Shown here: piece after piece, positions 1 through 25,099 of the stretch
How the letters are laid out: each line of letters starts with the position of its first letter
How positions within the stretch are numbered: the first letter of the stretch is position 1
Origin: Squalus acanthias
Taxonomy: Eukaryota
DNA: 64,000 nt
Assembly (NCBI GenBank): GCA_030390025.1
Contig: CM059431.1
Span: 143,718,001 to 143,782,000, forward strand
Direction: 5' to 3'
The notes under the pieces: model-generated
Seen by the model: only the letters and a program-made list of their open reading frames with translations
Told to the model about the DNA's origin: nothing
Database searches by the model: none
Program-made: the position numbers and the translations under genes

Positions 1-220
1 AATGTGGAACTTGCTATAATATTGAGTATTTGAGGCAATTAGTATGCATGCATTTTAGGGGAAGCTGTATAAGCACAAGAGACAGAAAGAATAAAAGGAT
101 ATGCAGGTAGTCTTAAATGAAGAGGGGTTGGAAGAGGCTCGTCTGGAGCATAAATGCCGACACCGGCCAGTTAGGCCGAGTGGGTTCTTTCTGTGCTATA
201 AACACTATATAACTCCATAG
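1..220 (+). mobile_element. CR1-type LINE 3' end fragment
   Basis: A degenerate WNxL-type RT tail followed by a ggccgagtggg...ttctgtgct 3' UTR like the other CR1 ends in this window. Confidence 0.6.
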
Positions 221-404
221 CAAAATACTGCAGGTACTATATAACTCCATGTCACTAAATCAGGTGGACAGCGAACTGATCAATGAACACAGTCCGCTGC
301 TCAGTCTCTCGGACTCCCATGTGTTGCTCAGCTTCAAATTCTCCCTGGAAACAAATTGAAATGTTGTCTGAGGCTCAGCATTGAAGTATTAACGTATCTT
401 TTCA

Positions 405-965
405 ATGCTCTCCTGGCCAATATCCCATCTTGCAATCTCCGTGAACTTGAGTTCATCCAATAACTCTGTTATCCGTAACCTAACTCCCGCCAAGTCCCGT
501 TCGCTCATCACCCCTGTGCTCGCTCACCTATATTGGCTCCCGGTCAGGCAACACATCGACTTAAAAATTCTCAACTTTTTTTTCAAATGCCTCCATGGCC
601 TCGCCCTTCCCTATCTCAGTTACCTCCGCTCGTCCTACAACTCTCCGAGACCTCTGCACTCTGCCAATTCCGGCCTCTTGCGCTTCCCTGATTCCAGTCG
701 CTCCACCATTGGCATTCGTGCCTTCAGCTGCCGAGGTCCTCAGCTCTCGAATTCCCTCCCTAAACCTCTCCGCTCTCTAACTCTCTCTTTCCCTCTTTAA
801 AACACTCCTTAAAACCTGCCTATTCGATCAAGCTTTTGATCACCTGTCCTATTATCTCATTATGTGTCTTGGTGTTAAATTCTTGTCTGATGACGATCCT
901 GTGGATGTCTTGGACGTTTTATTACATTAAAGTCGATGCTTAAATGCAATTTGATATTGTTGTTG
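405..965 (+). mobile_element. L2-type LINE 3' fragment
   Basis: Encodes ITPVLAHLYWLPV...RAFSCRGPQLSNSLP, typical of the L2 ORF2 C-terminus, and ends in a (ttg)n tail. Confidence 0.8.
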
Positions 966-3900: not shown

Positions 3901-5169
3901 CTATTGCACTGACCAGAGAAGGTGTATCTGATTTAGTATAAGGTGAGGTTGTTATTGTACTGATCAGAGAAGGTGTATCTCATTTAGTAAATTGTGAAGA
4001 TTTTATTTTACTGACCAGAAAAGATGTATCTGATTTAATAGATGGTGAAGGTGTTATTGTACGGACAAGAGAAGATGTATCTGATCTAGTAGATGGTGAA
4101 GGTTTTATTGTACTGACAAGAGAAGATGTATCTGATTTAGTAGATGGTGAGAGTGTTATTGTACTGACCAGAGAAGGTGTATCTGATTCAGTAGATGGTG
4201 AGGTGGTTATTGTACTGATCAGAGAAGATATATCTCATTTAGTAAATGGTGAAGGTGTTATATTGTACTGACCATAGAAGATGTATTTGATTTAGTAGAT
4301 GGTGAAGGTGCTATTGTACTGACCAGAGAAGATGTATCTCATTTAGCAGATGGTGAAGGTGTTATTGTACTGATCAGAGAAGATGTATCTGATTTAGTAG
4401 ATGGTGAAGGTGCTATTGTACTGATCAGAGAAGATGTATCTGATTTAGTAGATGGTGAAGATTTTATTGTACTGACCAGCGAAGATGTTTCTGATTTAGT
4501 AGATGGTGAAGGTGGTTTTGTTCGGAGCAGAGAAGATGTTTCTGATTTAGTAGATGGTAAGGGTGTTATTGTACTGACCAGAGAAGGTGTATCTGATTTG
4601 GTAGATGGTGAAGGTGCTATTGTACTGATCAGGGAAGGTGTATCTGATTTAATAGATGGTAAAGGTGTTATTGTACTGACCAGAGAAGGTGTATCTGATT
4701 TAGTAGATGGTGAAGGTCTTATTGTACTGACCAGCGAAGATGTTTCTGATTTAATAGATGGTGAAGGTGCTATTGTACTGACCAGAGAAGACATGTCTGA
4801 TTTAGTAGAAGGGGAAGGTGTTATTGTACTGACCTGAGAAGATGTATCTGATTTAGTAGATTGGGAAGGAATTATTGTAATGACCTGAGAAGATTTATCT
4901 GATTTAGTAGAAGGGGAAGGTGTTATTGTACTGACCTGAGAAGATGTATCTGATTTAATAGATGGTGAGAGTGTTATTGCACTGACCAGAGAAGATGTAT
5001 CTGATTTAGTAGATGGTGACGGTGTTACTGTACTGACCAGAAAAGATGTATCTGATTTAGTAGATGGTGAGAGTGTTATTGCACTGACCAGAGAAGATGT
5101 ATCTGATTTAGTAGATGTTGAAGGTTTTATTGTACTGACCAGAGATGGTGTATCTGATTTAGTAGATTG

Positions 5170-5275
5170 TGAGAACAGAGTTAGCTCTCTCCACGGATGC
5201 TGCCTGGCCGCTGAGTCTTTCCAGCGTTTCCTGTTGTTATTTCGGATTTCCAGCATCCGCAGTATTTTGCTATCG
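5170..5275. mobile_element. ~100-bp short interspersed (Penelope-type) repeat fragment inserted in the 51-bp array, copy 1
   Basis: The array is interrupted by ...ccacggatgctgcctggccgctgagtctttccagc...ggatttccagcatccgcagtattttgc. The same tail recurs at ~41420-41452. Confidence 0.75.
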
Positions 5276-6549
5276 TATCTAATTTAGTAGATGATAAAGG
5301 TGCTATTATACTGACCAGTTCAGATGTATTTGATTTAGTAGATGGTGAAGGTGCTATTGTACTGACCAGTGAAGATGTATGTGATTTAGTAGATGGTGAG
5401 GGTGTTATTTTACTGACCAGAGCAGATGTATCTGATTTAGTAGTTGATGAAGATGTTATTGTGCTGACCAGAGAAAATGTATCTGATTTGTTAGATGAAT
5501 AAGGTGTTATTGTACTGACCAGAGAAGGTGTATCTGATTTAGTAGATGGTGAGGGTGTTATTTTACTGACCAGAGCAGATGTATCTGATTTAGTAGTTGG
5601 TGAAGTTGTTATTGTGCTGACCAGAGAAAATGTATCTGATTTGTTAGATGAATAAGGTGTTATTGTACTGACCAGAGAAGGTGTATCTGATTTAGTAGAT
5701 GGTGAGGGTGTTATTTTACTGACCAGAGCAGATGTATCTGATTTAGTAGTTGATGAAGATGTTATTGTACTGACCAGAGAAAATGTATCTGATTTGTTAG
5801 ATGAATAAGGTGTTATTGTACTGACCAGAGAAGGTGTATCTGATTTAGTAGATGGTGAGGGTGTTATTTTACTGACCAGAGCAGATGTATCTGATTTAGT
5901 AGTTGGTGAAGTTGTTATTGTACTGACCATAGAAGGTGTTTCTGATTTAGTAGATGGTGAAGGTGCTATTGTACTGACCATGGAAGGTGTTTCTGATTTA
6001 GTAGATGGTGAAGGTGCTATTGTGTCAACTAGAGAAGGTGTATCTGATTTAGTAGATGGTGAAGGTGCTATTGTACTGACCAGAGAAGATGTATCTCATT
6101 TAGTAGATGGTGAGAGTGTTATTGCGCTGACCAGAGAAGATGTATCTGATTTCGTAGGTGGTGAAGGTGCTATTCTACTGCCCAGAGAAGATGTATCTGA
6201 TTTAGTAGATGGTGAAGGTGTTATTGTACTGACCAGAGAAGATATATCTGATTTAATAGATGGTGAAGGTGCTTTTGTACAGACCAGAGAAGGTGTATCT
6301 GATTTAGTAGATGGGGAAGGTGTTATTGTACTGACCTGAGAAGATGTATTTGATTTAACAGATGGTGACGGTGTTATTGTACTGACCAGAGAAGATGTGT
6401 TTGATTTAGTAGAAGGGGAAGGTGTTATTGTACTGACCAGAGAAGATGTATCTGATTAGTAGATGGTGAGAGTGTTATTGCACTGACCAGAGAAGATGTA
6501 TCTGATTTAGTAGATGTTGAATGTTTTATTGTATCTGATTTAGTAGATT

Positions 6550-6655
6550 GTGAGAACTGAGTTAACTCTCTCCACGGATGCTGCCTGGCCGCTGAGTCTT
6601 TCCAGCGTTTTCTGTTGTTATATCGGATTTCCAGCATCCGCACTATTTTGCTGTC
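6550..6655. mobile_element. Same ~100-bp inserted repeat, copy 2
   Basis: Near-identical to 5170-5275, with the same left junction (gatttagtagattgtgagaac). Confidence 0.75.
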
Positions 6656-7326
6656 GTATCTGATTTAGTAGATGGTGAAGGTGCTATTATACTGACAAGT
6701 AAAGATGTATCTGATTTAGTAGATGGTGAAGGTGCTATTGTACTGACCAGAGAAGATGTATCTGATTTAGTATATGGTGAAGGTGCTATTGTACTGACCA
6801 GTGAAGTTGTATCTGATTTAGTAGTTGTTGAAGATGTTATTGTACTGACCAGAGAAAATGTATCTGATTTGGTAGATGAATAAGGTGTTATTGTACTGAC
6901 CAGAGAAGGTGTATCTGATTTAGTAGATGGTGAAATTGTTAAGGATTGACCAGAGAAGATGTATCTGATTTATTAGATGTTCGATGTGCTATTGTACTGA
7001 CCAGATAAGATGTATCTTATTTAGTAGATGGTGAAGTTGTTATTTTTACTGACCAGAGAAGATGTTTCTGGAATAGTAGTTGGTGAAGCTGTTTTTGTAC
7101 TTACCAGACATGATCTATCTGACTTAGTAGATGGTGAGATTGTTATTGCACTGACCATAGAAGGTGCATCTGATTTAGTAGATGGTGAAGGTGCTACTCT
7201 TCTCATCAGGGAAGAAGAATCTATGCTTAAAGATATTGAGCTGCTATTGAAATTGGGAGATGATGTTTCTGAATTAATAGATGATGAAGCTGTTACTCTA
7301 CTGGCCTGGGGATGATGTATCCTGAT

Positions 7327-10300
7327 TTAGGAATGATGAACGTGCTGTAGTACGGACCTGAATGTTGTAGCCTGATTAGTAGATGAGAGTGGTACTATAT
7401 TGAACTGGGATAGCGTAGCCTGATTAATAGATGATGATGGTGCTGTATTGATCTGGGATGGTGTAATCTGATTTATAGATGATGGTGATGCTGTATTGAC
7501 CTGGGATGGTGTAATCTGATTTATAGAGGATGATGGGGCTGTATTGACCTGGGATGGTGTAATCTGATTTATAGATGATGGTGGTGCTGTATTGACCTGG
7601 GATGGTGTAATCTGATTTATAGATGATGGTGGTGCTGTATTGACCTGGGATGGTGTAGTCTGATTTATAGATGATGTTGGTGCTGTATTGACCTGGAATG
7701 GTGTAGTCTGATTTATAGATGATGCTGGTGCTGTATTGACCTGGAATGGTGTAGTCTGATTTATAGATGATGATGGTGCTGCATTGACCTGGGATGGTGT
7801 AGTCTGATTTATAGAGGATGATGTTGTTATATTGACCTGGGATGGTGTGGTCTGCTTTATAGATGATGAACGGACTCTAGCACTGTCCTGCGATGTTTTA
7901 GATACCGCAAAAGTTAATGTCGACGCTGAATTTAAAGCCGGAAGCAGCATTGGTCTCATAGTGACAGCTGATGACTGTTGCATGGTTCTACCTGTCAGGG
8001 AGGGTGGAAACACATTGTTGTTTTCGGTCGATGATGGGGCCCTTGCCTTGTTGGAAGACGGAGGCACATTCACACTGTACAAGCTGGGCACACTCGCACT
8101 GCTCACGATAGGCACAGTCTCACTGGTCACAATGGGCACACTCGCACTGCTCACGATAGGCACAGTCTCACTGGGCACGGTGGGCACAGTCTCACTGTTC
8201 ACGATGGGCACAGTCCCACTGTTCAAAATGGACATCGTTTCACTGGTCACGATGGGCACAGTCTCACTAGTCACGTTGTGCACAGTGTCAATGGGCACGA
8301 TGGGCAGAGTCTCACTGGTCACGATGTGCACCGTCTCAGTGATCACGATGGGCACAGTCTCACTGGGCACGATAGGCAAAGTCTCACTGGTCACGATGGG
8401 GACAGGCTCAGTTTTCACGATGGGCACACTCGCACTCCTCACGATTGGCACAGTCTCACTGGTCATGATGGGCACCGTGTCAATTTTTACGATGGGCACA
8501 GTCTCACTGGTCACGATGGGCACAGTGTCACTGGTCACGATGGGCACAGTGTGAGTGGTCACGATGGGCACAGTCTCACTGGTCACGATGGGCACAGTGT
8601 CACTGGTCACGATGGGCACAGTGTGAGTGGTCACGATGGGCACAGTCTCACTGGTCACGATGGGCAGAGTCTCAGTGGTCACGATGGGCACAGTCTCACT
8701 GGTCACGATGGTCACAGTCTCACTGGTCACAATGGGCACAGTCTCACTTGTCACGATGGGCACAGTCTCAGTGGTCACGATGGTCACAGTTTCACTGGTC
8801 ACGATGGGCACAGTCTCACTGGGCACGATGGTCACAGTCTCACTGGGAACGATGGGCACAGTCTCACTGGTCACGATGGGCACAGTCTGAGTGTTCACGG
8901 TGGGCACAGTCTCACTGGGCACGATGGGCACAGTCTCACTGGTCACGATGGGTACAGTCTCACTGGTCACTATGGGGACAGTCTCAGTGTTCACGATGGG
9001 CAAAGTCTCACTGGTCACGATGGGCACAGTCTCACTGGTCACGATGGGGACAGTCTCAGTGTTCACGATGGGCCAAGTCTCACTGGTCACGATGGGCAGA
9101 GGCTCACTGGTCACGATGGGCACAGTCTCACTGGTCACGATGGGCAAAGTCTCACTGGTCACGATGGGCACAGTCTCACTGGTCACGATGGGCACAGTCT
9201 CATTGGTCACGATGGGTACAGTCTCACTGGTCACGATGGGCACAGCATCAGTGTTCACGATGGGCACAGTGTCACTGGTCACGATGGGCACAGTCACAGT
9301 GTTCACGATGGTGACGGTCTCACTGGTCACGATGTGCACAGTCTCAGTGTTCACGATGGGCACAGGCTCACTAGTCACGATGTGCTCAGTCTCAGTGTTC
9401 ACGATGGGCGCAGTCTCACTTGTCACGATGGGGACAGTCTCAGTGGTCACGATGGGTACAGTCTCACTGGTCACGATAGGCACAGTCTCAGTGGTCACGA
9501 TGGGCACAGTCTCACTGGTCACGATGGGTACCGTCTCACTGGTCTCGATGGGCAGAGTCTCAGTGGTCACGATGGTCACAGTCTCACTGGTCACGATGGG
9601 CACAGTGTCAGTGGTCACGATGGGCACAGTCTCACTGGTCACGATGGCCACAGTCTCACTGGTCACGATAGGCACAGTCTCACTGGTTACGATGGGCACA
9701 GTCTCACTGGTCACGATGGGCACAGTCTCAGTGGTCACGATGGGCACCGTCTCACTGGTCACGATGGGCACAGTCTCACTGATCACGATGGGTACAGTCT
9801 CAGTGGTCACGATGGGTACAGTCTCACTGGTCACGATGTGCACAGTCTCAGTGGTCACGATGGGTACAGTCTCACTGGTCACGATGGGCACAGTCTCAGT
9901 TGTCACGATGGGTACAGTCTCAGTGGTCACGATGGGCACATTCTCACTGGTCACGATGGGTACAGTCTCAGTGGTCACGATGGGTACAGTCTCACTGGTC
10001 ACGATAGGCACAGTCTCAGTGGTCACGATGGGTACAGTCTCAGTGGTCACGATGGGCACATTCTCACTGGTCACGATGGGCACAGTGTCACTGGTCACGA
10101 TGGGCACAGTGTCAGTGGTCACGATGGGGACAGTCTCACTGGTCACGTTGGGCACAGTCTCACTGGTCACGATGGGCACAGTCTCACTGGTCACGATGGG
10201 CACATTCTCACTGGTCACGATGGGTACAGTCTCAGTGGTCACGATGGGTACAGTCTCACTGGTCACGATAGGCACAGTCTCAGTGGTCACGATGGGTACA

Positions 10301-11483
10301 GTCTCAGTGGTCACGATGGGCACATTCTCACTGGTCACGATGGGCACAGTGTCACTGGTCACGATGGGCACAGTCTCAGTGGTCACGATGGGGACAGTCT
10401 CACTGGTCACGTTGGGCACAGTCTCACTGGTCACGATGGGCACAGTCTCACTGGTCACGTTGGGCACAGTCTCACTGGTCACGATGGGCACAGTCTCACT
10501 GGTCACGATGGGCACAGTCTCACTGGTCACGTTGGGCACAGTCTCACTGGTCACGATGGGCACAGTCTCAGTGGTCACGATGGGGACAGTCTCACTGGTC
10601 ACGTTGGGCACAGTCTCACTGGTCACGATGGGCACAGTCTCACTGTTCACGATGGGCACAGTCTCACTGGTCACGATGGGCACAGTCTCACTGGTCACGA
10701 TGGGTACAGTCTCACTGGTCACGATGTGCAAAGTCTCACTGGTCACGATGGGCACAGTCTCACTGGTCACGATGGGTACATTCTCACTGGTTACGATGGG
10801 CAGAATCTCCATGGTCACGATGGGCACAGTTTCACCGGTCACGACGGCTACAGTCTCACTGGTCACAATGGGCACAGTCTCAGTGGTCACGATGGGCACA
10901 GTCTCACTGATCACGATGGGCACAGTCACACTGATCACGATGGGCACAGTCTCACTGGTTACGATGGGCACATTCTCACTGTTCACGATGGGCACAGTCT
11001 CACTGGTCACGATAGGCACAGTCTCACTGGTTACGATGGGCACATTCTCACTGTTCACGATGGGCACAGTCTCACTGGTCACGATAGGCACAGTCTCACT
11101 GGTCACGATGGGCACAGTCTCACTAGTCACGATGAGCACAGTCTCACTGGTCATGATGGGAATGGTCACACTGGTCATGAAGGGCACAATCGCACTGATC
11201 CAAGAATCCATAATTGTGGATAAACTGGAAGCCACTAAGGATGCTGTAGAAGTTGGAGGCTGGGCTGTTGAACTGGGCTGTTGACCTGATCTACCAAGGG
11301 AAGAGGAGGTTTCCATTGATGCAGGGTGATTGGGCGATCGAGGCGCAGTTGAACTTCTCATGGACGTGGTTGTACTTTTGATGCGGTGGTTCACAATCCT
11401 GGAGTTGATAGAAAGTGGATTCTGGGATTCGCTGAGCGTCGGCAGCCCATTGGTCGCGGAATGCGCTCTGGTCATAGTTGTCA
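7327..11483 (-). CDS. Giant mucin-like (PTS-rich) exon, probable final coding exon of the cobalamin-binding protein gene
   Basis: Strong acceptor TTGTTTCTCCTACTTTGCACAG (AG at 11484-85), phase 1 and in frame with exon 6. The frame is open to TAA at 7327-29 and encodes ~1385 aa dominated by TSETVPIV and QVNTAPSSSINQITPS repeats. The link to exon 6 is inferred from phase and adjacency. Confidence 0.72.
7360..7870. repeat. 48-bp coding tandem repeat (QVNTAPSSSINQITPS on minus strand), ~10 copies
   Basis: Unit tgtattgacctgggatggtgtaatctgatttatagatgatggtggtgc. Confidence 0.93.
8090..11190. repeat. 24-bp coding tandem repeat (TSETVPIV on minus strand), roughly 125-130 copies
   Basis: Unit cactggtcacgatgggcacagtct, repeated with no frame-breaking indel. 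Confidence 0.97.
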
Positions 11484-11564
11484 CTGTGCAAAGTAGGAGA
11501 AACAATGTCAATAGATTATTGGAGGCAACGGGCAGTAAAGTTGGACATGGGCGAAGACGGAAAA

Positions 11565-11720
11565 CTGGGGGAATCACATTTGCCAACCGTTTTGCAACAC
11601 GCCTGATATTCGGTTCTGTTGGAAATAGTGGAATGAATATCGGGGTTTATAAAGAAAGAAACGGGCGACCGATGACATACCGTCGGTTTTGCGGCCCTGC
11701 TCTTGTCGAATTTCACCCAC
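11565..11720. mobile_element. Palindromic MITE-like short repeat
   Basis: Similar to 12496-12674: acacgcc(t/c)gatattc...gaatatcgg...gttttgcg...tgtcgaatttcacc. Confidence 0.55.
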
Positions 11721-12039
11721 AACTTCTGGAGACACGCTCAGAATCAGCGCATGTGAAAAGTGGAGCTCAGGCACAAACCAGCTCTGCATTCCAGTTAGTG
11801 CGACCATTGTCATATGTGAAGATCCCTGAGGATATCTACATTGGTGAACCTCCCGCTGGGAGTGAGGCCAAGCAGATGGCTCAGGGCGTCCAATTATTTC
11901 ACTTAGAAAACTGAGCAAACATAAAGGATTCAGGAAGGTCAAGGTGTGAATGGGTAAAATCCCAGCTTCAGTGCTCCTGGCAAATACCCTGGAGAAAATA
12001 TCATGAAACTGGACGGTGATTTAAAACTAACAGACGATG

Positions 12040-12260
12040 AATTGTTATGATCTGGAATGCACTGACTGAAAGTGTGGTGGAAGCAGATTCAAAGTCATTT
12101 CAAAGGGGATTTAGATAAATATTTATAGAGGAAAACTGCAGGACTATGGGGAGAGGGCAGGGCACTGGAACTAATTGGATTGCTCTTTCGAAGCGCCGAC
12201 ACAGGCACTATGGGTCGAATGGCCTCATTCTACACTGTTTCCTTCCATGATTCATTTCCA
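12040..12260 (+). mobile_element. CR1-type LINE 3' end fragment
   Basis: tggaatgcactg...gtggtggaagcagattca...ggg(t)cgaatggcct 3' end motif. Confidence 0.7.
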
Positions 12261-12495
12261 TTGGCTATTTCTTCTGCATTTTGATTCCTAACCCCATGCG
12301 AGTAGCTTCCCATCTGTACAGCCTGGGAGCAGCGCATCCAGGAAATTCTTGATCTCAGCTTTGCATTCTGGGAACGGAACCTGCCCGATTTTCCTTCCGT
12401 TATTTTCGTTGCAGCTTCTGTTCGGGCCGTGTAACCTTCCCGTCACATTCTCCCTTATTTACCCCGCCTATGCAGCTCTTAAAGCTGAGAGGCGT

Positions 12496-12674
12496 GGTGA
12501 AATTCGATGGGGATGGGGACGCGACACAGGAGGAATCGCTCTCACCAACCATTATATACACGCCCGATATTCAGTTCTTTTGAAGTCAATTGGACCGAAT
12601 ATCGGGCGGAGCGGATATCGGACGCCTGATGCGACACCGTTCGTTTTGCGACCTCGCCAATGTCGAATTTCACC
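12496..12674. mobile_element. Palindromic MITE-like short repeat
   Basis: Terminal inverted repeat ggtgaaattcga/tcgaatttcacc and internal palindrome cgcccgatattc...gaatatcgggcg. Related cores lie at ~15970, ~22340, ~26480 and ~34140. Confidence 0.6.
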
Positions 12675-12713
12675 GTCTCCCATACTTAGTCCGGTCTGTT
12701 GCTGTACCCTTAC

Positions 12714-12900
12714 CTTTATATACAGGACAGGTTATCTTGTTCACGTCCAGGTAACTCTTTCCTCCCAGGGCTATCGCCACCTGTGACATTGTTGTAAGGT
12801 TTTCCCAGTTTCCCCGAGAAATTTCTTGCACCATTTTCTGCACAGACTTGGTGCAATTATAGACACGTGAGGTGAACACGTTTATGTTTTCGTCCAGGGC
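12714..12900 (-). CDS. Cobalamin-binding protein gene, exon 6 (end of alpha domain)
   Basis: CAG acceptor and GTAAGG donor; 187 nt, phase 0-1. Translates ALDENINVFTSRVYNCTKSVQKMVQEISRGNWENLTTMSQVAIALGGKSYLDVNKITCPVYK, matching the family pattern AL...NC...EI..G..N....Q....L.GK.YLDV..+TC. Confidence 0.93.
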
Positions 12901-13144
12901 CTGGAGTGTAAAGAAGGTAACAATATTTTGAATATTCAATGTTAATGATCCGGAGATCATTTAGTGTGAGCACATATGAACTCTGTTTCAAAGCTCTGTA
13001 GCATAAAGTGGGAGTCATTGGAAATAAAAATCGGGAGAGATCGGGCTGCAGATTCGTCATCACCCATTTTACACCATCGCACAAACTCAAATCCTACCCC
13101 ACGTGCGTTCTGACCAGGGTACAGTTTAGATTAGATTGCAGTGT

Positions 13145-13440
13145 GGTGAGACCACACTTCGAGTATTGTGAATAGTCCTGGTCCGGTGAGACCACACTTA
13201 GAGTATTATGAATAGTCCTGGTCTGGTGAGACCACACTTAGAGTATTGTGAATAGTCCTGGTCTGGTGAGACCACACTTAGAGTATTGTGAATAGTCCTG
13301 GTCTGGTGAGACCACACTTACAGTATTGTGAATAGTTCTGGTCTGGTGAGACCACACTTAGAGTATTGTGAATAGTTCTGGTCTGGTGAGACCACACTTA
13401 CAGTACTGTGAATAGTTCTGGTTTAGACCACAATTAGAGT
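13145..13440 (+). repeat. 40-bp tandem repeat (~7 copies) derived from CR1 RT sequence
   Basis: Unit gtgagaccacacttagagtattgtgaatagtcctggtctg corresponds to the CR1 VRPHLEYC...WS segment. Confidence 0.9.
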
Positions 13441-13597
13441 ACCGTGCACTGCTCTGTTCTCCATATTACTAAAAGGAAGTAAAGGCACATCTCGAAGGTG
13501 CAATAAAAATATTGGCAATGATTATACCAGAATTCTGTGGTTATAACTATTAGGAAAGTTTTATCAGTTTGGGTGTTTTTCTATAGAAAAGAGAAGG

Positions 13598-15420
13598 GAA
13601 CCCAAAAATCTTCTACCAGCATGTAAACACTAAGCGGGTAGTAAGAGGCGGGCTGGGGCCTATTAGGGACAAAGAAGGTGATATATGCTTAGAGGCGTAG
13701 GGTAAGGCTAGAATACTCAAATAGTACTTTGTATCGGTGTTTACTAAAGAGGTGGATGCTGACAAAATATCGGTAGAAGTGGAAAAGGTAGAAGCAATGG
13801 AAGGGGTGAACATTGATAGACAGGACCTACTAGAAAGACAGGGTATGCTGCGAGTGGATAAGTCGCCTGGTCCAGATGGCTTGCATCCCAGGTTGCAAAG
13901 GGAATTGGGGGAGGATATAGCAGAAGGGCTTGCCATAATTTTCCAATCTTCGCTAGATGCGGGGGAGTTGCCTAAGAATTGGAAAATGGCAAATGTGACA
14001 ATATTGTTCAAGAAAGGGTTTAAGGACAATCCAAGTAACTATAGGTCGGTCAGTTTAACATCAGTGGTGGGTTACGTTTTAGAAACAATACTCAAGGAAA
14101 AAATTAACGGGCAACGAGTGGTTTAACCTAATTAAGGAGAGCCTACACGATTTGTAAAAGGCAGATCATGTTTCACTAATCTAATTGAAATTTTTGATGA
14201 AGTAACAGGGAGGATTGATAAAGGGAATGTAATGGATGTTGTCTACATAGATGGCTGGTTAACAAAATTGAGTTTCATGGATTAGATGGGTCAGTGGCAG
14301 CTTGGATAAGGAATTGGCTTAAGCACAGAAAACCACGAGTTGTGGTAAATGGCTATTTTTGAGACTGCAGGATGGTAGACAGTGGTGTTCCCCAAGGGTC
14401 AGTGCTGGGGCCACTGCTTTTCTTGATATATATAAATGACCTGAATATTGGAATACAAAGTAGAATTTCTAAATTTGCTGATGACACCAAACTTGGCGGG
14501 GGAGGGGTGGGGGTGGTGTGGCAAACAGTGAGGATGATACCAATCGGCTGCAACAGGACATAGAAAGGCTAGCAGAATGGAAAGTGAAGTGACAGATGGA
14601 ATTTAATACAGAGAAGTGTGAGGTGATGCATTTTGGCAGAAGGAACAGGGAAAGGCAATATACACTTAATGGCACAATCTTAAAGAGTGTGCAGTGACCC
14701 AGGGACGTGGGGGTTAATGTCATAGGTCCCTGAAGGTGGCAGGACATATTGAGAGAGTGGTTAGCAATGCCAATGTGATTTTGGGCTTCATAAATAAAGG
14801 TATTGAGCACAAAGGTAGAAAAGTTATGCTCAGCCTCTTTAAGGCGCTGGTTAGACCACAACTGGTGTATTGCATCCAGTTGTGGTCACCAAAGTTTAGG
14901 ATGGATATGAAGGACCTTGAGAAAATGCAGAGGAGATTTACCAGAATGGTTCCGGGGATGGGGGATCTTAGCTACAAGGACAGTTTGGAAAAGCTGGATT
15001 TGTTTTCATTAGAGCAAAGGAGGTTGAGGGATGATTTGATGGAGGTTTACAAGATTATGACGGGTTTGGATAGGCTAGACGGGGAAAGGCTTATCCCACT
15101 AGGTGATGATACAAGGACCAGGGGACAACGATTTAAGGTTTTGTGCAAGAGGTACAAGGGGGATGTGAGGAAAAAAAAATTTATGCGGCGAGAGGCGAAG
15201 ACCTGGAATTCGCTGCCGACGAAAGTTGTGGAAGCGGAGACACTCAATGCTTTCACGGGGAGACTGGGTAGGCATTTGATGGAATAAACTTGCAGGGCTA
15301 CGGGGATGGAGCGGGGGAATGGGACTGACTGGATTGCTCTACAGAGAGCCGGATTGGACTCGATGGGCCGAATGGCCTCGTTTTGTGCCGTTATGTCTCT
15401 ATTAATCTTTGATTCTATTA
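13598..15420 (+). mobile_element. Degenerate 5'-truncated CR1 LINE (RT), nested in an older CR1 fragment (13440-13597 and 15421-15780)
   Basis: [36 protein letters not shown] and WNSLP motifs with stops and frameshifts. The host CR1 resumes at 15421. Confidence 0.9.
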
Positions 15421-16365
15421 CTGAAAGGTGAACTAAAAGAGGTCTTCAAAATTATGAAAGGATTTGATAAGGTAAACGTAGAGAAGATGTCTCCACTTGC
15501 AGGGTGAGTCCAAAACTAGGGTCCATACATATAAGATCGCCACTCATAAACCCAACAAGGAATTTAGGAGAAACTTCTTAACGAGAGAGTGGATAGAAAT
15601 TGTAACTCGCTATCACAAGGAGTAGCAGAGGAGGCGAATAGCAAAGATTGATTTAAGGGAAATCTACATGAAGGAGAAAGGAATAGAAGGATATGGTGAT
15701 AGGGTTAATAGGGCGGGAGGAGCCTCGTGTGGCCCACAAACACACGAAAGGCCTGTTTCTGTACTGAACATTCCATTTAAAGATTGTCCTCTTTGAATTT
15801 GAAGTCAACTAGTTTCTCAATATAACAAAACCATCCTGTTTACATTGCTTATCGTCACTTCAGTGTATTGATTTAATGAGCATTGAGTCATTCGCTTTCT
15901 TTTGTGGTAACTTTAACTTTGAGCGATGATGCACAATGGCCAATTTTGAATTAACCGCCCATTGTATACCACGCCCGATTTTCCTTTGCATTGAATCCAT
16001 GGAAGGTAAAATCTGGCGCCTGTAAATTAGAGAGCAATTGGATATTACCCATTTTACACCTTCACCAAAAGTTAAAATCACCCCTTAAATCTATTTCAAC
16101 CAATGCCCTCCGCTCCTGGCGAGTTCTATCCCATGAAAGATATCGAGGTGTCTCAGAATCTTCCAACAGGCTGTATTTTGCATTGCTTCACACTGAACGT
16201 CATCTGAACACATTAAGCACCGATACACCAATATGGCAATATCGTTTCTATGCTCTAATTGTTTATGGTCCATCGCTTAATATGTTGCGAAGAAGCTGTT
16301 AATTACTAACTGCCCTTAGCGCTAATTAAACTAGAAACCTATTTTCTAATTTCACATCACCATAC

Positions 16366-16541
16366 CTGCATGGCCAGCCCTGTACTGCTCAAGCTCCCAA
16401 TGGTCCCGTCCTCTCTCACTTCACTTAGAATCCGCCTCATTATCCACATTAATGCCTTTGCGATGTCAAGCCGAGATCTGCCTCTTGGTTGTTGCGAGTG
16501 TATCCAACACCTCAGACTAAGTGCCGCGGTGGCCATTGTAT
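16366..16541 (-). CDS. Cobalamin-binding protein gene, exon 5 (alpha domain)
   Basis: TAG acceptor and GTATGG donor; 176 nt, phase 1-0. Translates (D)TMATAALSLRCWIHSQQPRGRSRLDIAKALMWIMRRILSEVREDGTIGSLSSTGLAMQ, matching the VDTxAMAxLALxC and DGxIGxxxSTGLAMQ family signatures. Confidence 0.93.
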
Positions 16542-16669
16542 CTACAACACAGGAAACAATTACCATCGGTTCATGGAGTAAATTTGACAGGAGGGTCGGT
16601 AACGAGAGGACACAGATGTACGATATTGACAAAAGATCCTGAGGGGACATGGGGAGTCATTTTTATTTT

Positions 16670-16900
16670 TTATGCAGCGAATATAACCTGGAATGGACTG
16701 CCTGAACGGGGGGTGGAAGCAGATTCAATGGTGACTTTAAAAAGGGAATTTGATATATACTTGATAAGGATACAAATACAGGGTTATGGCCTATGGGGAA
16801 AGAGAAGGGAGAGTGGGATTAATTGGGGAGCTATTTCAAAGAGCCTCCACAGGTAAGATGGGCCGACATGCCTCCTTCTGTAAGTTTGGCTGATTCTATG
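16670..16900 (+). mobile_element. CR1-type LINE 3' end fragment
   Basis: Encodes WNGLPERGVEADS...KREFDIYL, followed by the 3' UTR motif. Confidence 0.75.
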
Positions 16901-17274
16901 ATGTCCGAAGCCGACAAGGCACGAGCGATCCGAGAACCCATTGATGAAGAGACGCTTCCCAAATTTCCAATCATTTTACTCACAGCCGGTGACCAATGGA
17001 CTCCATCCAGCACAAGTTTACCAATCATTGATTGCAGTGACACGGCCTTGTCCCGAAACAGAACTGTACGGGTCTTAGCTAGAAATTGAATTGGGGGTAA
17101 TGGGGACAAGACTGAGATTATGAAATGCTACTTGTAATAAAACATGCAAGGGGTGAAATGGCATTTGGGCGGGAAATCAATTCAGGCGAAATCGCATTTT
17201 ACGAGCGTTATTTAGTTCTATTGGCCGTTTTGCGGCCCCGCCCAGGTCCAATTACAGCGCCCACACTTCTCCAA

Positions 17275-17635
17275 TCGTAACCTGTGAACCCAGGTAACCA
17301 CTTTCAAAACTCCATCAAATGGATATCTTCAACAATCGTAACCCGTGAACCCAGGTAACCTCCTTCAAAATTCTAGCAAATGGATATCTTCACCGACCGT
17401 GACCTGTGAACCCCGGTAACCTCTTTCTAAAACTCCATCAAATGGATATCTTCACTGACTGTAACCTGTGAACACCGGTAACCTCTTTCTAAAACTCCAT
17501 CAAATGGATATCTTCCCCGACCGTAACCTGTGAACCCGGGTAACCTCGTTCAAAACTCCATCAAATGGATATCTTCACTAACCGTAACCTCTGAACCCGG
17601 ATAACCGCTTTCAAATCTCCCTCAAATGGATATTT
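17275..17635. repeat. ~60-61-bp tandem repeat, ~6 copies (intron 4)
   Basis: Unit cgtaacctgtgaacccaggtaacctctttcaaaactccatcaaatggatatcttcacc. Confidence 0.9.
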
Positions 17636-17676
17636 TAGAAATTATAAATTGAAACGTCTTGTCTGCTCAGACACAC

Positions 17677-17832
17677 CTACAGTTAATTCTTTCCCGTGTT
17701 GAGCGATCTTCCTGAGATGAGCCCGGATGAAATTATGAATGAGAAAGCCCGGGACAGGTTCCTCCTCCTGACACAGCGCCAGGATCGCCAGGCTGGCTTC
17801 AGTAAAGGCCTTGAGAGAATATCCAGCGTTTT
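17677..17832 (-). CDS. Cobalamin-binding protein gene, exon 4 (alpha domain)
   Basis: CAG acceptor and GTGTGT donor; 156 nt, phase 1-1. Translates NAGYSLKAFTEASLAILALCQEEEPVPGFLIHNFIRAHLRKIAQHGKELTV; SLAILALCQ is the intrinsic-factor-type motif. Confidence 0.92.
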
Positions 17833-18284
17833 CTGTAAATACAGTGACAGACTCCAATGTTAGTGATGTGCTCCACATCTGAATAACGGGAACAACAGAT
17901 GTGAGAATTCCTCACTAGTTCGTTCTCGATCATCTCTGTGTGCCAGAAATCAGGCCAAGGATTTAAATGAATTAAATAGAATTGGTGTAGAATTTACAGC
18001 ACAGAAGGAGGCTTTTCGGCCCAACAGGTCTAATTATGCTCCACATGAACCTTACTTCATCTCACTGGAGCAGCTTACCCGAGGGAGCAATTCCTTTCTC
18101 CTTCGTGACCTTGTCTAACTTCGCCTTAAATACATCTATACAATTCGCCTCAACTTCTCCTGTGCTATCAAATTCCACATTCTCGCCACTCTATCGGGAA
18201 AATAAGTTTCTCCTGAATCCCCCATTGTTTTTAGTACTGACTCTACAGCGGACTACTGCTCTCCAGCATGGTTATCCAATCCAC

Positions 18285-21200
18285 ATGATTATGGAGAGAG
18301 GTACAGACTGAGCTGTGAGTGCAATTGGAATTTATGGGGACAGGTACAGACTGAGATGTGAGTGTAATTGGAATTTATGGGGACAGGTACAGACTGAGAT
18401 ATGAGTGTGATTGGAGGTTATGGGGACAGGTACAGACTGAGATATGACTGTGATTGGAGGTTATGGGGACAGGTACAGACTGAGATATGAGTGTGATTGG
18501 AGGTTATGGGGACAGAGACAGACTGAGATATGAGTGTGATTGGGGGTTATGGAGAGAGGTGCAGACTGAGATGTGAGTGTGATTGAAGGTTATAGGGACA
18601 GGTACAGGCTGAGATATGAGTGCGATTGGAGTTTATGGGGACAGTTACAGACTGAGATGTGAGTTTGATTGGAGGTTATGGAGAGAGGTACAGTCTGAGA
18701 TCTGAGTGTGATTCCTCGTTATAGTGACAGGTACAGACTGAGTTGTGAGTGTGATTGGAGGTTATGGAGAGAGGTACAGTCTGAGATGTGAGTGTGATTC
18801 CTGGTTATGGGGACAGGTACAGACTGAGATGTGAGTGTGATTCCTGGTTATGGGGACAGGTACAGACTGAGATGTGAGTGTGATTCCTGGTTATGGGGGC
18901 AGGTACAGACTGAGATATGAGTGTGATTGGAATTTATGGGGACAGGTACAAACTGAGATATGATTGTGATTGGAGGTTTTGGGGACAGTTACAGACTGAG
19001 ATGTGAGTTTGATTGGAGGTTATGTGGACATGTACAGACAGAGATATGAGTGTGATTGGAGGTTATGGGGACAGGTACAGAATGAGATGTGAGTGTGATT
19101 GGAGGTTATGGGGACAGGTACAGACTGAGATATGAGTGTGATTGGAGGTTATGGGGACAGGTACAGACTGAGATATGAGTGTGATTGGAGGTTATGGGGA
19201 CAGGTACAGTCTGAGATGGGAGTGTGATTGCTGCTTATTGAGAGAGGTACAGACTGAGATGTGAGTGTGATTGGAGGTTATGTGGACAGGTACAGAATGA
19301 GATATGAGAGTGATTGGAGTTTATGGGGACAGGTACAGACTGAGGTATGAGTGTGATTGGAATTTATGGAGACAGGTACAGACTGAGATGTGAGTGTGAT
19401 TCCTGGTTATTGGGACAGGTATAGACTGAGATGAGAGTGTGATTGCTGGTTATGGAGACAGGTACAGACTGAGATGAGAGTGTGATTGGAGGTTATGGGG
19501 ACAGGTACAGACTGAGATGTGAGTGTGATTGGAGGTTATGGGGACAGGTACAGACTGAGATGTGAGTGTGATTCCTGGTTATGGAGACAGGTACAGTCTG
19601 AGATGTGAGTGTGATTGGAGGTTATGGGGACAGGTACAGACTGAGATGTGAGTGTGATTCCTGGTTATGGGGACAGGTACAGTCTGAGATGTGAGTGTGA
19701 TTCCTGGTTATGGGGACAGGTACAGACTGAGATGTGAGTGTGATTCCTGGTTTTGGAGACAGGTACAGTCTGAGATGTGAGTGTGATTCCTGGTTATGGA
19801 GACAGGTACAGACTGAGATGTGAGTGTGATTCCTGGTTATGGAGACAGGTACAGACTGAGATGTGAGTGTGATTGGAGGTTATGGGGACAGGTACAGACT
19901 GAGATGTGAGTGTGATTGGAGGTTATGGGGACAGGTACAGACTGAGATGTGAGTGTGATTGGAGGTTATGGGGACAGGTACAGACTGAGATGTGAGTGTG
20001 ATTGGAAGTTATGGAGAGAGGTACAGACTGAGATGTGAGTGTGATTGGAGGGTATTGTGTGAGGTACAGACTGAGATGTGAGTGTGATTGGAGGTTATGT
20101 GGACAGGTACAGAATGAGATATGAGAGTGATTGGAGTTTATGGGGACAGGTACAGACTGAGGTATGAGTGTGATTGGAATTTATGGAGACAGGTACAGAC
20201 TGGGATGGGAGTGTGATTACAGGTTATGGAGAGAGGTACAGACTGAGATGTGAGTGTCATTCCTGGTTATGGGGACAGGTATAGACTGAGATGTGAGTGT
20301 GATTGGAGGTTATGTGGACAGGTACAGACTGAGATATGAGTGTGGTTGGAGGTTATGTACACAGGTACAGACTGAGATATGAGTGTGATTGGAGGTTATG
20401 TGGACAGGTACAGACTGAGATATGAGTGTGATTGGAGGTTATGTGGAAAGGTACAGACTGAGATATGAGTGTGATTGGAATTTATGGGGACAGGTACAAA
20501 CTGAGATATGATTGTGATTGGAGGTTATGAGGACAGTTACAGAATGAGATGTGAGTGTGATTGGAGGTTATGTGGACAGGTACAGACTGAGATGTGAGTG
20601 TGATTCCTGGTTATGGGGAGAGGTACAGACTGAGATGTGAGTGTGATTCCTGGTTATGGGGAGAGGTACAGACTGAGATGTGAGTGTGATTCCTGGTTAT
20701 GGGGACAGGTACAGACTGAGATGTGAGTGTGATTCCTGGTTATGGGGAGAGGTACAGACTGAGATGTGAGTGTGATTCCTGGTTATGGGGACAGGTACAG
20801 ACTGAGATGTGAGTGTGATTCCTGGTTATGGGGACAGGTACAGACTGAGATGTGAGTGTGATTGCTGGTTATGGGGACAGGTACAGACTGAGATGTGAGT
20901 GTGATTCCTGGTTATGGGGACAGGTACAGACTGAGATGTGAGTGTGATTCCTGGTTATGGAGCGAGGTACAGACTGAGATGGGAGAGTGGTTGGATGTTA
21001 TGGAGAGAGGTACAGACTGAGATGTGAGTGTGATTGGAGGTTATGGAGAGAGGTACAGACTGAGATGTGAGTGTGATTGGAGGTTATGGGGTCAGGTACA
21101 GACTGAGATGTGAATATGATTGCTGGTTATGGGGACAGGTACAGACTGAGATATGAGTGTGATTCCTGGTTATGGGGACAGGTACAGACTTAGATGTGAG

Positions 21201-21460
21201 TGCGATTGCTGGTTATGGGGACAGGTACAGACTGAGATGTGAGTGTGATTCCTGGTTATGGCGACAGGTACAGACTGAGATGTGAGTGCGATTGCTGGTT
21301 ATGGGGAGAGGTACAGACTGAGATGTGAGTGTGATTGCTGGTTATGGGGAGAGGTACAGATTGAGATGTGAGTGTGATTCCTGGTTATGGGGACAGGTAC
21401 AGACTGAGATGGGACTGTGATTGGAGGTTATGGAGAGAGGTACAGACTGAGATGTGACTG
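18285..21460. repeat. 43-bp minisatellite, ~74 copies (intron 3)
   Basis: Unit gagatgtgagtgtgattggaggttatggggacaggtacagact, with an alternating attcctggtt variant. Confidence 0.97.
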
Positions 21461-21548
21461 TGTTTGTTGGTTTTCAGCTTGTGTTTGCTGAAAGATGCTT
21501 CTCAATCTCTATGCAAATAACATGGCTAAAGTATGAGTCTACATTTAC

Positions 21549-21719
21549 CTTTAGAAGTTGTTATCCTAGGTATGTGATGCAGTTCACTGTACAGCCTCTC
21601 ATGTAGCATCTCCACCAAATTCACCTCCTTGTTCCCTGCCGATATCTTGGCGGAGTTCCGACAAGAGGATCTGAAGGCTAAGATGTGGTAAACCAACTGG
21701 TCTATGGGGAAGTGTTCAC
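21549..21719 (-). CDS. Cobalamin-binding protein gene, exon 3 (alpha domain)
   Basis: Not in the ORF track. Pyrimidine tract plus CAG acceptor and GTAAAT donor; 171 nt, phase 1-1. Translates EHFPIDQLVYHILAFRSSCRNSAKISAGNKEVNLVEMLHERLYSELHHIPRITTSK, matching the GQLxLxIxALxSSC family motif. Confidence 0.88.
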
Positions 21720-22699
21720 CTGGCGGCAGAGGAACAAACGAGATTCAGTTTGTTCTGACTGGGTCCATCAATACCTAACTGGTTAGTGATTATAAATTCC
21801 TCTTCTGCACTCTGAAGACTTGTATTAATATTCCACCTTATTCTAACTCTCAAAGTGCTTCAAGTACAATAAATTATTTGAAGTGCAGCTACCCTTGTTA
21901 TATCGACCAATTCGGGAGCCATTTTGTGGACAGTCATATCCCACAAACAGCACTGAAGTAGTTAACCAGTTCTAAATTCTTAACTAGCGACACGGTAAAT
22001 GGATTAACTGGTAATGTATTTCATTGGTACTTGTGACATCTTGTGTCCAATTGGTTGTCGAGGTTGTCTATGAAAGAAGAGTGGCTGCATTTCATTGGCT
22101 GTGAAGCAAATGCACGACAGAAATGTAAGTTTCTCCCTCTTCACTCTCCTCTCTCTTTAAACTACTTTGGGTGTTAGCTGGGGAATAAATGTTGGCCAAG
22201 TCCCCGGCAGCATTCTCCCTTCTTGTTCCAATAAAGCCGTGTCAGCTTCAAATTCCACAAGAAAAGATTCTGGGGATAATTTTAGATTCAGACGATATTG
22301 TAAAATAGGCGACACCGAATTGGCCTCCGATTAAAGATCCCGCCCGATTTTCACCTACATTGCAATGGAAAATCAAGCGTGGTGTAAAAGGGCAGCTGAT
22401 GCAACTTAGAGCAGGGGACAGTGTAATGATTTCTGATTTCAAAACAACGAGAGAGCAAGAAGCAGAACCACCGTGCAGGATGGGGGAATATAGGGTTTAG
22501 GTGGAAGAACATCGGAATGTTTAGACCTGCGAAATAATTTCCATAATAGTATCATGAACAAAGGTGGTGCAATAAATGACTGCTCGGCCCATTCACCTGA
22601 GGGCAGAATTCCAGCGAGAAGTCTCCCTCCCTCCCTCTCTTCATCTTCCTCTGTATGTGTCAGTTTCCCTCTTTCTCCATCTCACTCTTTCTCTTCCTC

Positions 22700-22701
22700 A
22701 A

Positions 22702-22733
<32 letters not shown>

Positions 22734-22955
22734 GTACAGACTCGGATATATATGTACACACATACACATATAAACACTTTCAGACACGTATACACACACA
22801 GACACACATATGCATACAGAAGCACAGACACACAGAAACGCAGAGACATACACACACACAATCGCAAAGAAACCCACAGAAAGATATACACAAAGAAACA
22901 TGGAAACACACACACACATATACATATACACACAAACACACACACACATATACAG
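22700..22955. repeat. Degenerate (CA)n/(TACA)n microsatellite
   Basis: Low-complexity CA-rich run. Confidence 0.9.
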
Positions 22956-23645
22956 AAACTTCAATGGCACATTGCTGCAAATTAATCCCTGGGATCTTGA
23001 TTCAAATGGTTGTGAAATTGTAGACTGTAATAAAATGAACTGCACTGGGGAAAAGAAGGAGAATCGCATGAGGTGTGTGAACTTTCAACATTGGCTCTCA
23101 CAAAATAGGCGCCACCGACAGTCATATTAGCTGCTATTTTTAAATTACCCTGTTTATTTTAAATGGACGAAATCCTCTATTCGGAACATTGGAATTGCTG
23201 GGGTGACTAAAGACAAAGGTGCCTCTAATTCTTCGTCTACCATCCTTGTAGTCGCATGATACAATGACATTGAGGTTGTTGTATAATCATCGTAATCAGT
23301 CTCTATAAATTAGTTTATAACAGACACAGACACGAGGCGAGGAATACCCGGTGCTGGAGAGCTTTGTGAACCATAGATACAAAATCACCTGTTCCTCCCA
23401 AGCACGCTACACTGACCATGTGTAAAGTCTCAAATTACACATATACTCTATCTCAAATGTTACGTTTTAATGTCAAACAGAGCAATACGACATGAACGGG
23501 CTAGAAGTTGGGTCACTATTATCATGGGGCCATTTCTAGGTTCCAATTTCCTTCATTAACAATAGTTTGCCAGCCACTCATCCTGTCAACAGTAATAAAG
23601 ATTTTATCCAGATACATCCACATTACCTAATAGTTGACTCCTTAC

Positions 23646-23828
23646 CTGATCCAACCTTTCTAACAGCCGCCTCACTCAGCCTTCGGAGAATGTCTTGTTC
23701 ACTCTGCAGATCATGCTCACTCCCCAGGCGCAGGGCAATGAAAGCCCCGGGGTCTGGCTCCACGGACAGATCACTCAGTTTCCTCTCTATACTCCGGAGA
23801 AGTGATTTCTGCTGATTATCTGGAGCCG
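23646..23828 (-). CDS. Cobalamin-binding protein gene, exon 2 (alpha domain)
   Basis: CAG acceptor at 23829-31 and GTAAGG donor; 183 nt, phase 1-1. Translates APDNQQKSLLRSIERKLSDLSVEPDPGAFIALRLGSEHDLQSEQDILRRLSEAAVRKVGS; PDPGAFIALRL resembles the family motif (P/L)NPSIxIxLxL. Confidence 0.88.
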
Positions 23829-23899
23829 CTGGAATCCACAACCCAATTATTAATCCACTCGCGTGTAATGAACATTAAGATAGCAGTAACACTTAAAGA

Positions 23900-24950
23900 G
23901 CTTGAGGATAATCAGAAGGCGCATGTGGCCGGTGAACACAACATATGAACATACAGTAAGAACATGTATTGTGGTAAACAGTGAGGAGGATAGTAGCAGA
24001 CTTCAGGAGGACACAGACAGACTGAGGAGAGGTAATATAAACCAAATAGTACAATTGTATTCGGGGCGCAGGAAGAGAGAGACCTCGGGTTCACGTACAC
24101 AAATCTCTGAAGGTGACAGGACTTATTGACAAATCTTTAAATAAAACATGGCGGGATCCTTGGCTTTCCAAATAGAAGCGATGTTGTGGAGATGCCGGTG
24201 TTGGACTGGGGTGGACAAATGTGAGAAGTCGCACAACACCAGGTTATAGTCCAAATAAAGCTCTTGGACTATAACCTGGTGTTGTGCGACTTCTCACATT
24301 TCTAAATAGACGCACAGAGTAGAAAAGCAAAGAATTTGTGGCAAAGGTTTATTAATCATTAGTTAAGCTTCAGTTGGTGCATTGTGTCCAATTCTGAGCA
24401 ACACACTTTAGTCAAGGCCTTGGAGAGGATGCAGAGGAGATTTACAAGAATGGTAGCAGGGATGAGGGCCTTCAGTTATGTGGAGAGACTGATGAAGCTG
24501 GGATTGTTCTCCTTAGAGTAGAAAAGGTTAAAGGGAGATTTAATAGGGGTGATCAAAATCCTGAAGAGTTTTGATAGAGTAAATAAGAAGAAACTACTTC
24601 CACTGGCAGAAGATTCAGTGTCAGAGGACAAACACTTAAAGTAACTGGCAGAAGAAACATCGGGGAATGGCGGTGTGGGGGGAGGGGTGGAATTAAAGAG
24701 ATTTAAAAACAATTCAGCAATGTTGCTGCGATCTGGAATGCATTGCCTGAAATGGTGATGGAAACATATTCAATACTAAATTTCAAAAGGGGAATTAGAT
24801 GAATACATGAAGAGGAAAAGGGGCAGGAATTTGGGGAAAGAGCAGGGTGGGTGGACTATTTGCTCTTTCAGAGAGCAGACAGAGGTACGATGGGCCGAAT
24901 GGGCTCCTTCTGCACTTAAGGTTCCATGATTCTATAATTCTTTGATTCTA
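23900..24950 (+). mobile_element. Degenerate CR1 LINE 3' portion (intron 1)
   Basis: RT C-terminal remnants (RLQED, RRFTRMV, WNAL-type) and the 3' UTR motif; interrupted at 24180-24300. Confidence 0.8.
24180..24300. mobile_element. Penelope-type inverted-repeat insertion with deleted centre
   Basis: Hairpin aatgtgagaagtcgcacaacaccaggttatagtccaa...ttggactataacctggtgttgtgcgacttctcacatt, flanked by an imperfect duplication tttccaaatagaagc/tttctaaatagacgc. Confidence 0.75.
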
Positions 24951-25029
24951 AATTACGAAAGAACTCAGTTAAAGGATAAACATCAGGTTTAGGTTCAACA
25001 CTGGGAACTAATCAACAGATCGCACTTAC

Positions 25030-25099
25030 TGCATTGCTGAGATGTTGCCGGGTACGAGACACTGAAGAGCAGGAGTGTGAGGGTCATCACCGGGGGCAT
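25030..25099 (-). CDS. Cobalamin-binding protein (transcobalamin/intrinsic factor family)-mucin gene, coding exon 1 (signal peptide)
   Basis: ATG at 25099 translates MPPVMTLTLLLFSVSYPATSQQC: a hydrophobic core, then Cys, then a phase-1 donor GTAAGT at 25029. Exon 1 of the TCN/CBLIF family has the same layout. Confidence 0.85.

Follow-up and report, generated by a model that had tools for sequence, protein, structure and literature searches.

A Squalus acanthias gene with an intrinsic-factor-type alpha domain and, probably, a mucin-like repeat tail instead of the beta domain

The stretch analyzed here (the window; 64,000 nucleotides of Squalus acanthias contig CM059431.1, assembly GCA_030390025.1, positions 143,718,001 to 143,782,000) carries, on its minus strand, a gene related to those of the vitamin B12 (cobalamin) carriers intrinsic factor (IF), haptocorrin (HC), and transcobalamin (TC). 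Six exons with GT donors, of which exons 2 to 6 also have AG acceptors, join to 943 nucleotides (314 codons plus 1 base) with no internal stop (Table 1); the signal peptide of exon 1 was judged by eye. In this reading, the six cysteines listed in a preliminary description of the window (QQC, SSC, ALC, LRC, YNC, and ITC) fall at residues 23, 104, 162, 205, 268, and 310 and its two N-glycan sequons at residues 267 (NCT) and 286 (NLT), and the motifs named there (DT, STGLAMQ, MSQV, GTIGSLSS, and FTE, the last at 17806) were all found on the minus strand. Exons 5 (35.2 bits) and 6 (40.7 bits) each exceed the cutoff (25) of the Pfam family PF01122, so the likeness to an alpha domain is not a matter of chance. 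In the alignment, the six cysteines, whose pairing here is predicted, occupy columns conserved in IF, HC, and TC alpha domains, and their spacing fits three of the four disulfides given for rat TC in the available text of PMC11107200.

Table 1. Features of the gene and its surroundings (positions are those of the window)
Feature	Position	Strand	Remarks
Exon 1: start codon and predicted signal peptide, Cys23	25099-25030	-	GT donor, phase 1
Exon 2: alpha domain	23828-23646	-	
Exon 3: alpha domain, Cys104	21719-21549	-	
Minisatellite of ~43 bp filling intron 3, noncoding	18300-21450 (ends approximate)	.	Read off the sequence
Exon 4: alpha domain, FTE replacing YYQ, Cys162	17832-17677	-	
Exon 5: alpha domain, DT retained, Ser243 replacing Asn/Asp, Cys205	16541-16366	-	
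Exon 6: last part of alpha domain, Cys268 and Cys310, both sequons, GT donor of phase 1	12900-12714	-	
Coding part (1,385 codons) of predicted exon 7	11483-7327	-	Splice predicted from DNA
24-bp coding tandem array, 8-residue unit, ~131 copies	8063-11197	-	No frameshift or stop here
48-bp coding tandem array, 16-residue S/T/P/Q/N unit, ~12 copies	7309-7869	-	
Stop codon TAA of exon 7	7329-7327	-	
51-bp array past the stop, 17-residue proline/threonine/serine reading	1462-7193	-	6 frameshifts and 7 stops counted
Two AATAAA signals, candidate 3' end	1263-1258, 1192-1187	-	

With respect to the fold, the AlphaFold model of an orthologue from Mustelus asterias (XP_078087636.1, annotated as cobalamin binding intrinsic factor-like; P0001), whose head is 69% identical, has a mean predicted local distance difference test score (pLDDT) of 85.7 and matches IF, HC, and TC at E values of 2e-11 to 8e-9; the best PDB matches were IF (sequence E 1e-21; Foldseek E 2e-11, TM 0.69), followed by HC. 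The concern that the protein might not adopt an alpha6/alpha6 fold was thus not borne out, the protein that models as an IF/HC/TC-like alpha barrel being the orthologue rather than the product of the window itself. A two-copy structure prediction of the orthologous head scored 0.00 and gave no verdict, and the ESM Atlas returned bacterial alpha/alpha-barrel clusters only, at ≤0.85, which was uninformative. Judged by its sequence, the head is an intrinsic-factor/haptocorrin-type alpha domain.

The C-terminal beta domain (PF14478), a feature of eukaryotic cobalamin carriers, was not found in the window gene. The earlier statement that positions 1 to 12700 hold no beta-domain exon stood, and the negative now extends 100 kb past position 1, so no such exon lies just outside the window, where it might have been spliced to the same message; a regular-expression search for beta motifs in these 100 kb gave chance matches only. 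A beta profile, built from 33 database proteins and run on 41,113 six-frame segments, yielded a first set of 12 matches of ≥14.2 bits, every one on contigs C474 and C13, and a second set of four more, on C1824 and C474. As a control, all 15 exons expected at five beta-bearing loci were recovered at ≥14.2 bits, along with one duplicate; at the loci of the window gene's family no score exceeded 7.3 bits (E 9.8). Searches of the whole genome with PF14478 (at least one match), with a beta exon of the same genome (at least five), and with a shark beta domain (at least nine) gave no match on the window's contig (C7) among the best candidates scored. Altogether, at least 11 distinct beta-exon places were found genome-wide, on three contigs, each of which also holds alpha exons.

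Alpha exons without a beta partner were also seen elsewhere. Sets at C1824:198000-228000 and C3652:1410000-1440000, with no beta match in about 20 to 27 kb downstream, may represent further beta-less paralogues beyond the window family. A compact alpha-only paralogue at C12:103838500-103849800 retains YYQ; the 17 kb downstream of it showed no beta exon, and its candidate last exon is short (about 9 codons). Outside the elasmobranchs, database models from a lungfish (P0034) and a frog (P0020) likewise show PF01122 only.

The preliminary description had treated the product as a bare alpha domain, a view that appears to be wrong, since exon 6 is predicted to be followed, in frame, by a mucin-like repeat exon (exon 7). 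Intron 6 offers six pyrimidine-rich acceptors in 1.23 kb, five of which open 2 to 21 codons, while the remaining one (at 11483) fits the phase-1 donor of exon 6 in frame and opens 1,385, for a predicted protein of 1,699 residues. About 105 nonrepeat codons are followed by the 24-bp array and then by the 48-bp array. The encoded tail consists of 21.9% T, 12.6% S, 11.5% P (46% S+T+P), 19.1% V, and 10.8% I, with no cysteine. A threshold of 40% S+T per sequence window is used for proline/threonine/serine-rich (PTS) domains; in exon 7, all 1,286 sequence windows reach 25% S+T with 5% P, 1,212 reach 30%, and 26 reach 40%. The functional definition of a mucin in the available text of PMC9417175 asks for tandem repeats within exons and a T+S content above 20%, and the whole predicted protein, given the predicted splice, combines such repeats with 31% T+S. 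Neither the VWD, C8, TIL, and cystine-knot domains of gel-forming (MUC2-type) mucins nor the SEA and EGF domains of membrane mucins had a Pfam match in exon 7. As for a C-terminal transmembrane helix, none was found near the C-terminus, the highest 19-residue hydropathy (1.96) lying inside the repeat and including Pro and Glu.

A search of the genome with PF01122 returned 72 matches, and the window gene's family comprises 14 loci, eight on C7, where they span 6 Mb and occur in either orientation, and six on contigs that are unplaced. One locus (C3762) shows only exons 2 and 3 in 30 kb. Exon 7 is present, 1,230 to 1,231 nucleotides downstream of exon 6, in all 13 loci examined past that exon, with the GT donor kept in 10 of these and the AG acceptor in 11. 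In eight loci (the window copy, copies A, C, D, E, F, and G, and C3521), the alpha part is open and neither splice site is lost; their tails measure 310 to 1,883 residues. Across the 13 loci, 33.7 kb of the 24-bp array contain 8 frameshifts and 3 stops, compared with 46 frameshifts and 37 stops in the 38.7 kb that the 51-bp array past the stop makes up, the opportunity for stops differing just ~2.4-fold between the two; the count for the 48-bp array, which mixes arrays in two loci, is excluded from this comparison.

Among the nine copies with full alpha exons (pairwise synonymous divergence [dS], 0 to 0.105), 32 synonymous and 56 nonsynonymous variants were counted on 220 and 722 sites, i.e., 0.145 and 0.078 per site, with 0.149 for intron 6 (10 copies); the alpha exons are under purifying selection (P = 0.004). 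This constraint, together with the existence of orthologues in another shark and in a ray, the six intact exons of the window copy, and a tail that stays open to ~9 codons from the stop position that other copies share, leaves little room for the idea that the gene is a decaying by-product of segmental duplication and that the window copy makes nothing that matters, to which we give a small chance. What speaks for decay is that 5 of the 13 loci are damaged in or next to the alpha part (splice site, exon, or frame), that tails across the family stop at differing places (281 to 1,883 residues), that some unplaced copies may be haplotype duplicates, and that a neighboring single-exon open reading frame (ORF; L003), presumably of the seven-transmembrane (7TM) type, which begins 14.2 kb past position 1, was duplicated along with the gene.

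At the 3' end of the gene, the broken 51-bp array is likely a relic within the 3' untranslated region. A TAG stands before this array at the same place in all five copies with a matched junction motif, and the window copy stops ~9 codons ahead of this common TAG through a one-base deletion. Both AATAAA signals recur at the same offsets in eight of eight C7 copies, which is a weak test because these copies are ~95% alike. Two similar nonrepeat insertions of ~90 bases lie within the 51-bp array (at ~6640-6560 and 5270-5180). Five of the C7 copies (A, B, E, F, and G) have a short 51-bp array whose distal 184 to 235 codons are open, possibly as a relic of an older, longer C-terminus. A continuous mucin exon of 10 kb was considered and rejected, the 51-bp array sitting behind the stop and being broken. 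A strongly diverged beta domain might still be imagined beyond the arrays, so that the product would be an alpha-mucin-beta carrier whose linker is giant: in four of nine loci, a GT comes directly after the 51-bp array (~1415), and a sister gene type (P0009 and the gene at the end of C474) has a P/T-rich linker before beta. We regard this as very improbable, given that the GT near 1415 is absent from the other five loci, that the stop precedes the 51-bp array in every matched copy, that 100 kb gave no beta signal and the 7TM-like gene already lies within them, and that the model of the orthologue from Narcine bancroftii ends without a beta domain.

Relatives were collected by a HMMER search with the Mustelus protein (86 matches, names being looked up for 20), whereas protein searches by word index brought up nothing beyond P0001 or P0002 themselves. 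The second HMMER match, N. bancroftii XP_069792302.1 (P0002; 993 residues), combines an alpha head (59% identical) with a 625-residue PTS tail and no beta domain; its name, mucin-2-like, is a misnomer, since Pfam finds PF01122 alone. A Chiloscyllium protein (GCC19399.1; P0048) likewise has alpha exons and a PTS tail, the start of which aligns weakly with that of exon 7 (28% identity over 64 residues; E 0.008 in a two-sequence search). A tree of 53 alpha domains was built with FastTree (without P0074 and P0087, and with five rows partly cut); in it, four copies of this genome form one clade with the Mustelus and Narcine proteins (Shimodaira-Hasegawa [SH]-like support, 100; stem, 0.75). Its sister (support, 94) is a clade of compact, alpha-only proteins from sharks and rays, which includes the C12 gene and those of Pristiophorus, Hypanus, and Hemitrygon, and both clades fall on the TCN1/IF side of the tree. 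The tree suggests that the beta domain was lost once, before sharks and rays diverged.

The compact sister clade, along with the fact that both Mustelus database models end right past the alpha domain and that the start of exon 7 lacks codon-level constraint, would also suit a short, alpha-only product, with the repeat exon untranslated or skipped, as the preliminary description had assumed. We nevertheless find such a product quite improbable: exon 6 closes in an open phase-1 donor for which the five other acceptors supply 2 to 21 codons, the reading frame is kept better in the 24-bp than in the 51-bp array, and the Narcine and Chiloscyllium models carry PTS tails.

We compared the pocket columns with those of 24 relatives having both alpha and beta domains, taking columns 194, 195, 243, 245, 246, 252, and 292 to be cobalamin-contact positions. 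As had been noted, some ligand-contact positions differ: column 152 is Tyr or Phe in all 24 relatives and Thr here, column 153 is Gln in 20 and Glu here, column 243 is Asn or Asp in all 24 and Ser here, and column 245 is Tyr or Phe in 23 and Ser here. Of the alpha-side motifs, then, columns 150 to 153, 243, and 245 are altered in the window copy, while Asp194, Thr195, Ser246, Gln252, and Gln292 are retained; overall, 29 of 41 conserved columns are kept, versus 31 to 41 in the proteins that defined them. Mustelus and Narcine differ from the relatives at the same columns (152, 153, 243, and 245), and Narcine is also changed at 194 and 195 (the Asp and Thr of DT) and at 292 (Gln), which argues against a conserved pocket. 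According to the available text of PMC4350170, the TNYYQ segment hydrogen-bonds the corrin ring. Human IF reads FYG where others have YYQ, yet binds cobalamin.

For human TC, the accessible part of PMC5599065 reports that the separately expressed alpha domain carried no cobalamin after purification, that the beta domain held it, and that the two joined only with cobalamin. In view of these observations, the window protein likely no longer binds vitamin B12 tightly. A weaker form of binding, in which the head holds corrinoids loosely (B12 or its analogues being kept in mucus by sheer numbers) or closes on a free beta domain in trans, would draw on the five retained contact residues and all six cysteines, on the FYG of human IF, on the rejoining of the separated TC domains, on the beta-only binders of zebrafish (PMC10778862, as far as its available text goes), and on two beta-exon sets on C474 without a complete alpha set in view. 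We hold it to be rather unlikely, considering the empty isolated TC alpha domain, the Narcine orthologue without the DT residues and Gln292, and the fact that none of the at least 11 beta places in the genome is clearly a beta-only gene. The two C474 sets, one at an assembly end and one in a partial duplication, are the only candidates for a beta-only product: at C474:54090-73407, a second exon 6 and three beta exons occur with exons 2 to 5 not in view, and at C474:78400-85155, a reverse-strand beta set has a P/T/S-rich linker and its upstream part past the contig end. Of the three options offered in the preliminary description (weak binding, pairing in trans with a beta-only partner, and changed function), the last fits best, and the second found no support.

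Taken together, the lack of a beta domain and the predicted 1,385-residue repeat tail make it likely that the product is a mucin-like secreted protein, one of a multicopy family of sharks and rays, and not a working B12 carrier. The reading that we favor, and consider probable though by no means assured, is that of a seven-exon gene whose product places a repurposed B12-carrier head on a repeat tail that replaces the beta domain. The beta domain would have been lost in an elasmobranch ancestor, after which, in one daughter lineage, a P/T/S linker at the start of exon 7 would have expanded into the repeat tail. Such an expansion is plausible because the tail begins at the linker junction and because the sister gene type has a longer linker, of tens of P/T-rich residues, ahead of an intact beta domain. 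The tail would be O-glycosylated and provide mucus-type bulk, and the disulfide-bonded head may have been retained as a module that docks onto some other ligand than tightly held B12, on a protein or on a surface.

A number of points weigh against this reading. The constraint on the head is moderate (about 0.5), Asp194, Ser246, and Gln292 remain in place, and there is the damage to five loci. With 30% Val+Ile and 26 of 1,286 sequence windows at 40% S+T, the tail would be an atypical mucin. Its first 105 nonrepeat codons show no significant constraint (19 synonymous versus 43 nonsynonymous variants; P = 0.23), and a long open frame is a weak sign of coding because tandem repeats open long frames by themselves, the opposite strand of the array holding frames of 1,062 and 797 residues. 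The joint of exons 6 and 7 is a prediction from genomic DNA; both Mustelus models stop without a PTS tail; and the Narcine and Chiloscyllium tails come from automatic annotation. No RNA data set was listed as containing 10900-12900. Same-species read contigs from three runs (whose RNA origin is a guess) contained no exon joint over 11230-18300, with coverage on repeats; depth was zero at 17602-17837, 16186-16421, 12646-12881, and 11230-11465, which has no bearing on expression.

Going further, one might speculate that sharks and rays possess undescribed mucosal defense mucins in which an IF-type head that has shed its beta domain serves as a recognition module on a length-polymorphic stalk, with birth-and-death turnover in a duplicated, NLR-holding region; the head may then recognize microbes, a receptor, or, by avidity, corrinoids. 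We consider this extension unlikely.

In the neighborhood, the 7TM-like ORF recurs at copies A and F (92 to 93% identical), with two more versions at ~70% further on. An NLR gene lies at 47005-48541, and probably to 51933, on the minus strand (NACHT, NOD2_WH, and NLRC4_HD2), the frames of its pieces differing. ORFs for reverse transcriptases (RVT_1) of the long interspersed nuclear element type are found at 42991-44874 (plus strand; 627 residues) and 53117-54895 (minus strand; 592 residues), and a minisatellite at 58006-60177 has long open frames on both strands (518 residues on the minus strand).

While the family of cobalamin binders has been described as one of two-domain clamps, with beta-only exceptions in teleosts, an altered yet selected alpha half, the weaker-binding one, kept by a shark-and-ray lineage on a mucin-like tail would, as far as the DNA allows one to judge, point to a role of the alpha barrel that is independent of tight B12 binding. 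It would also take mucinization beyond small proline-rich proteins and into a folded carrier, and would call for a correction of annotation, such genes now being filed as intrinsic factor-like or mucin-2-like. We found no paper describing an alpha-plus-mucin or alpha-only cobalamin binder, in a search that largely excluded subscription journals. Like CBLIF and TCN1 (PF01122 plus PF14478), the window gene has an alpha6/alpha6 head, the three disulfide positions, sequons, and the exon phases; unlike them, it lacks the beta domain, has the predicted 1,385-residue tail and altered YYQ and G(N/D)x(Y/F)S motifs, and occurs at 14 loci instead of one. The Narcine and Mustelus proteins share its clade, and the Narcine and Chiloscyllium proteins have similarly PTS- and V-rich tails without cysteine; the Narcine tail, however, is shorter and its repeats less regular, and the Mustelus models have none. 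The Tcn3 and Tcn1/Gif genes of the little skate are likewise additional, elasmobranch-specific paralogues of cobalamin binders, but the three carriers of that species all retain both domains, in contrast to the window gene (available text of PMC4350170). Mucinization of Prol1 to Muc10, as far as described in the accessible part of PMC9417175, similarly endowed a secreted protein with T/S-rich exonic repeats of variable copy number and no transmembrane anchor; it started, however, from small proline-rich mammalian precursors, whereas here a folded ligand-binding domain would have been kept and a whole domain replaced. Finally, zebrafish Tcnba and Tcnbb are, like the head described here, single-domain members of the family and represent the mirror case, in which, going by the available text of PMC10778862, the beta domain was kept along with high-affinity cobalamin binding.

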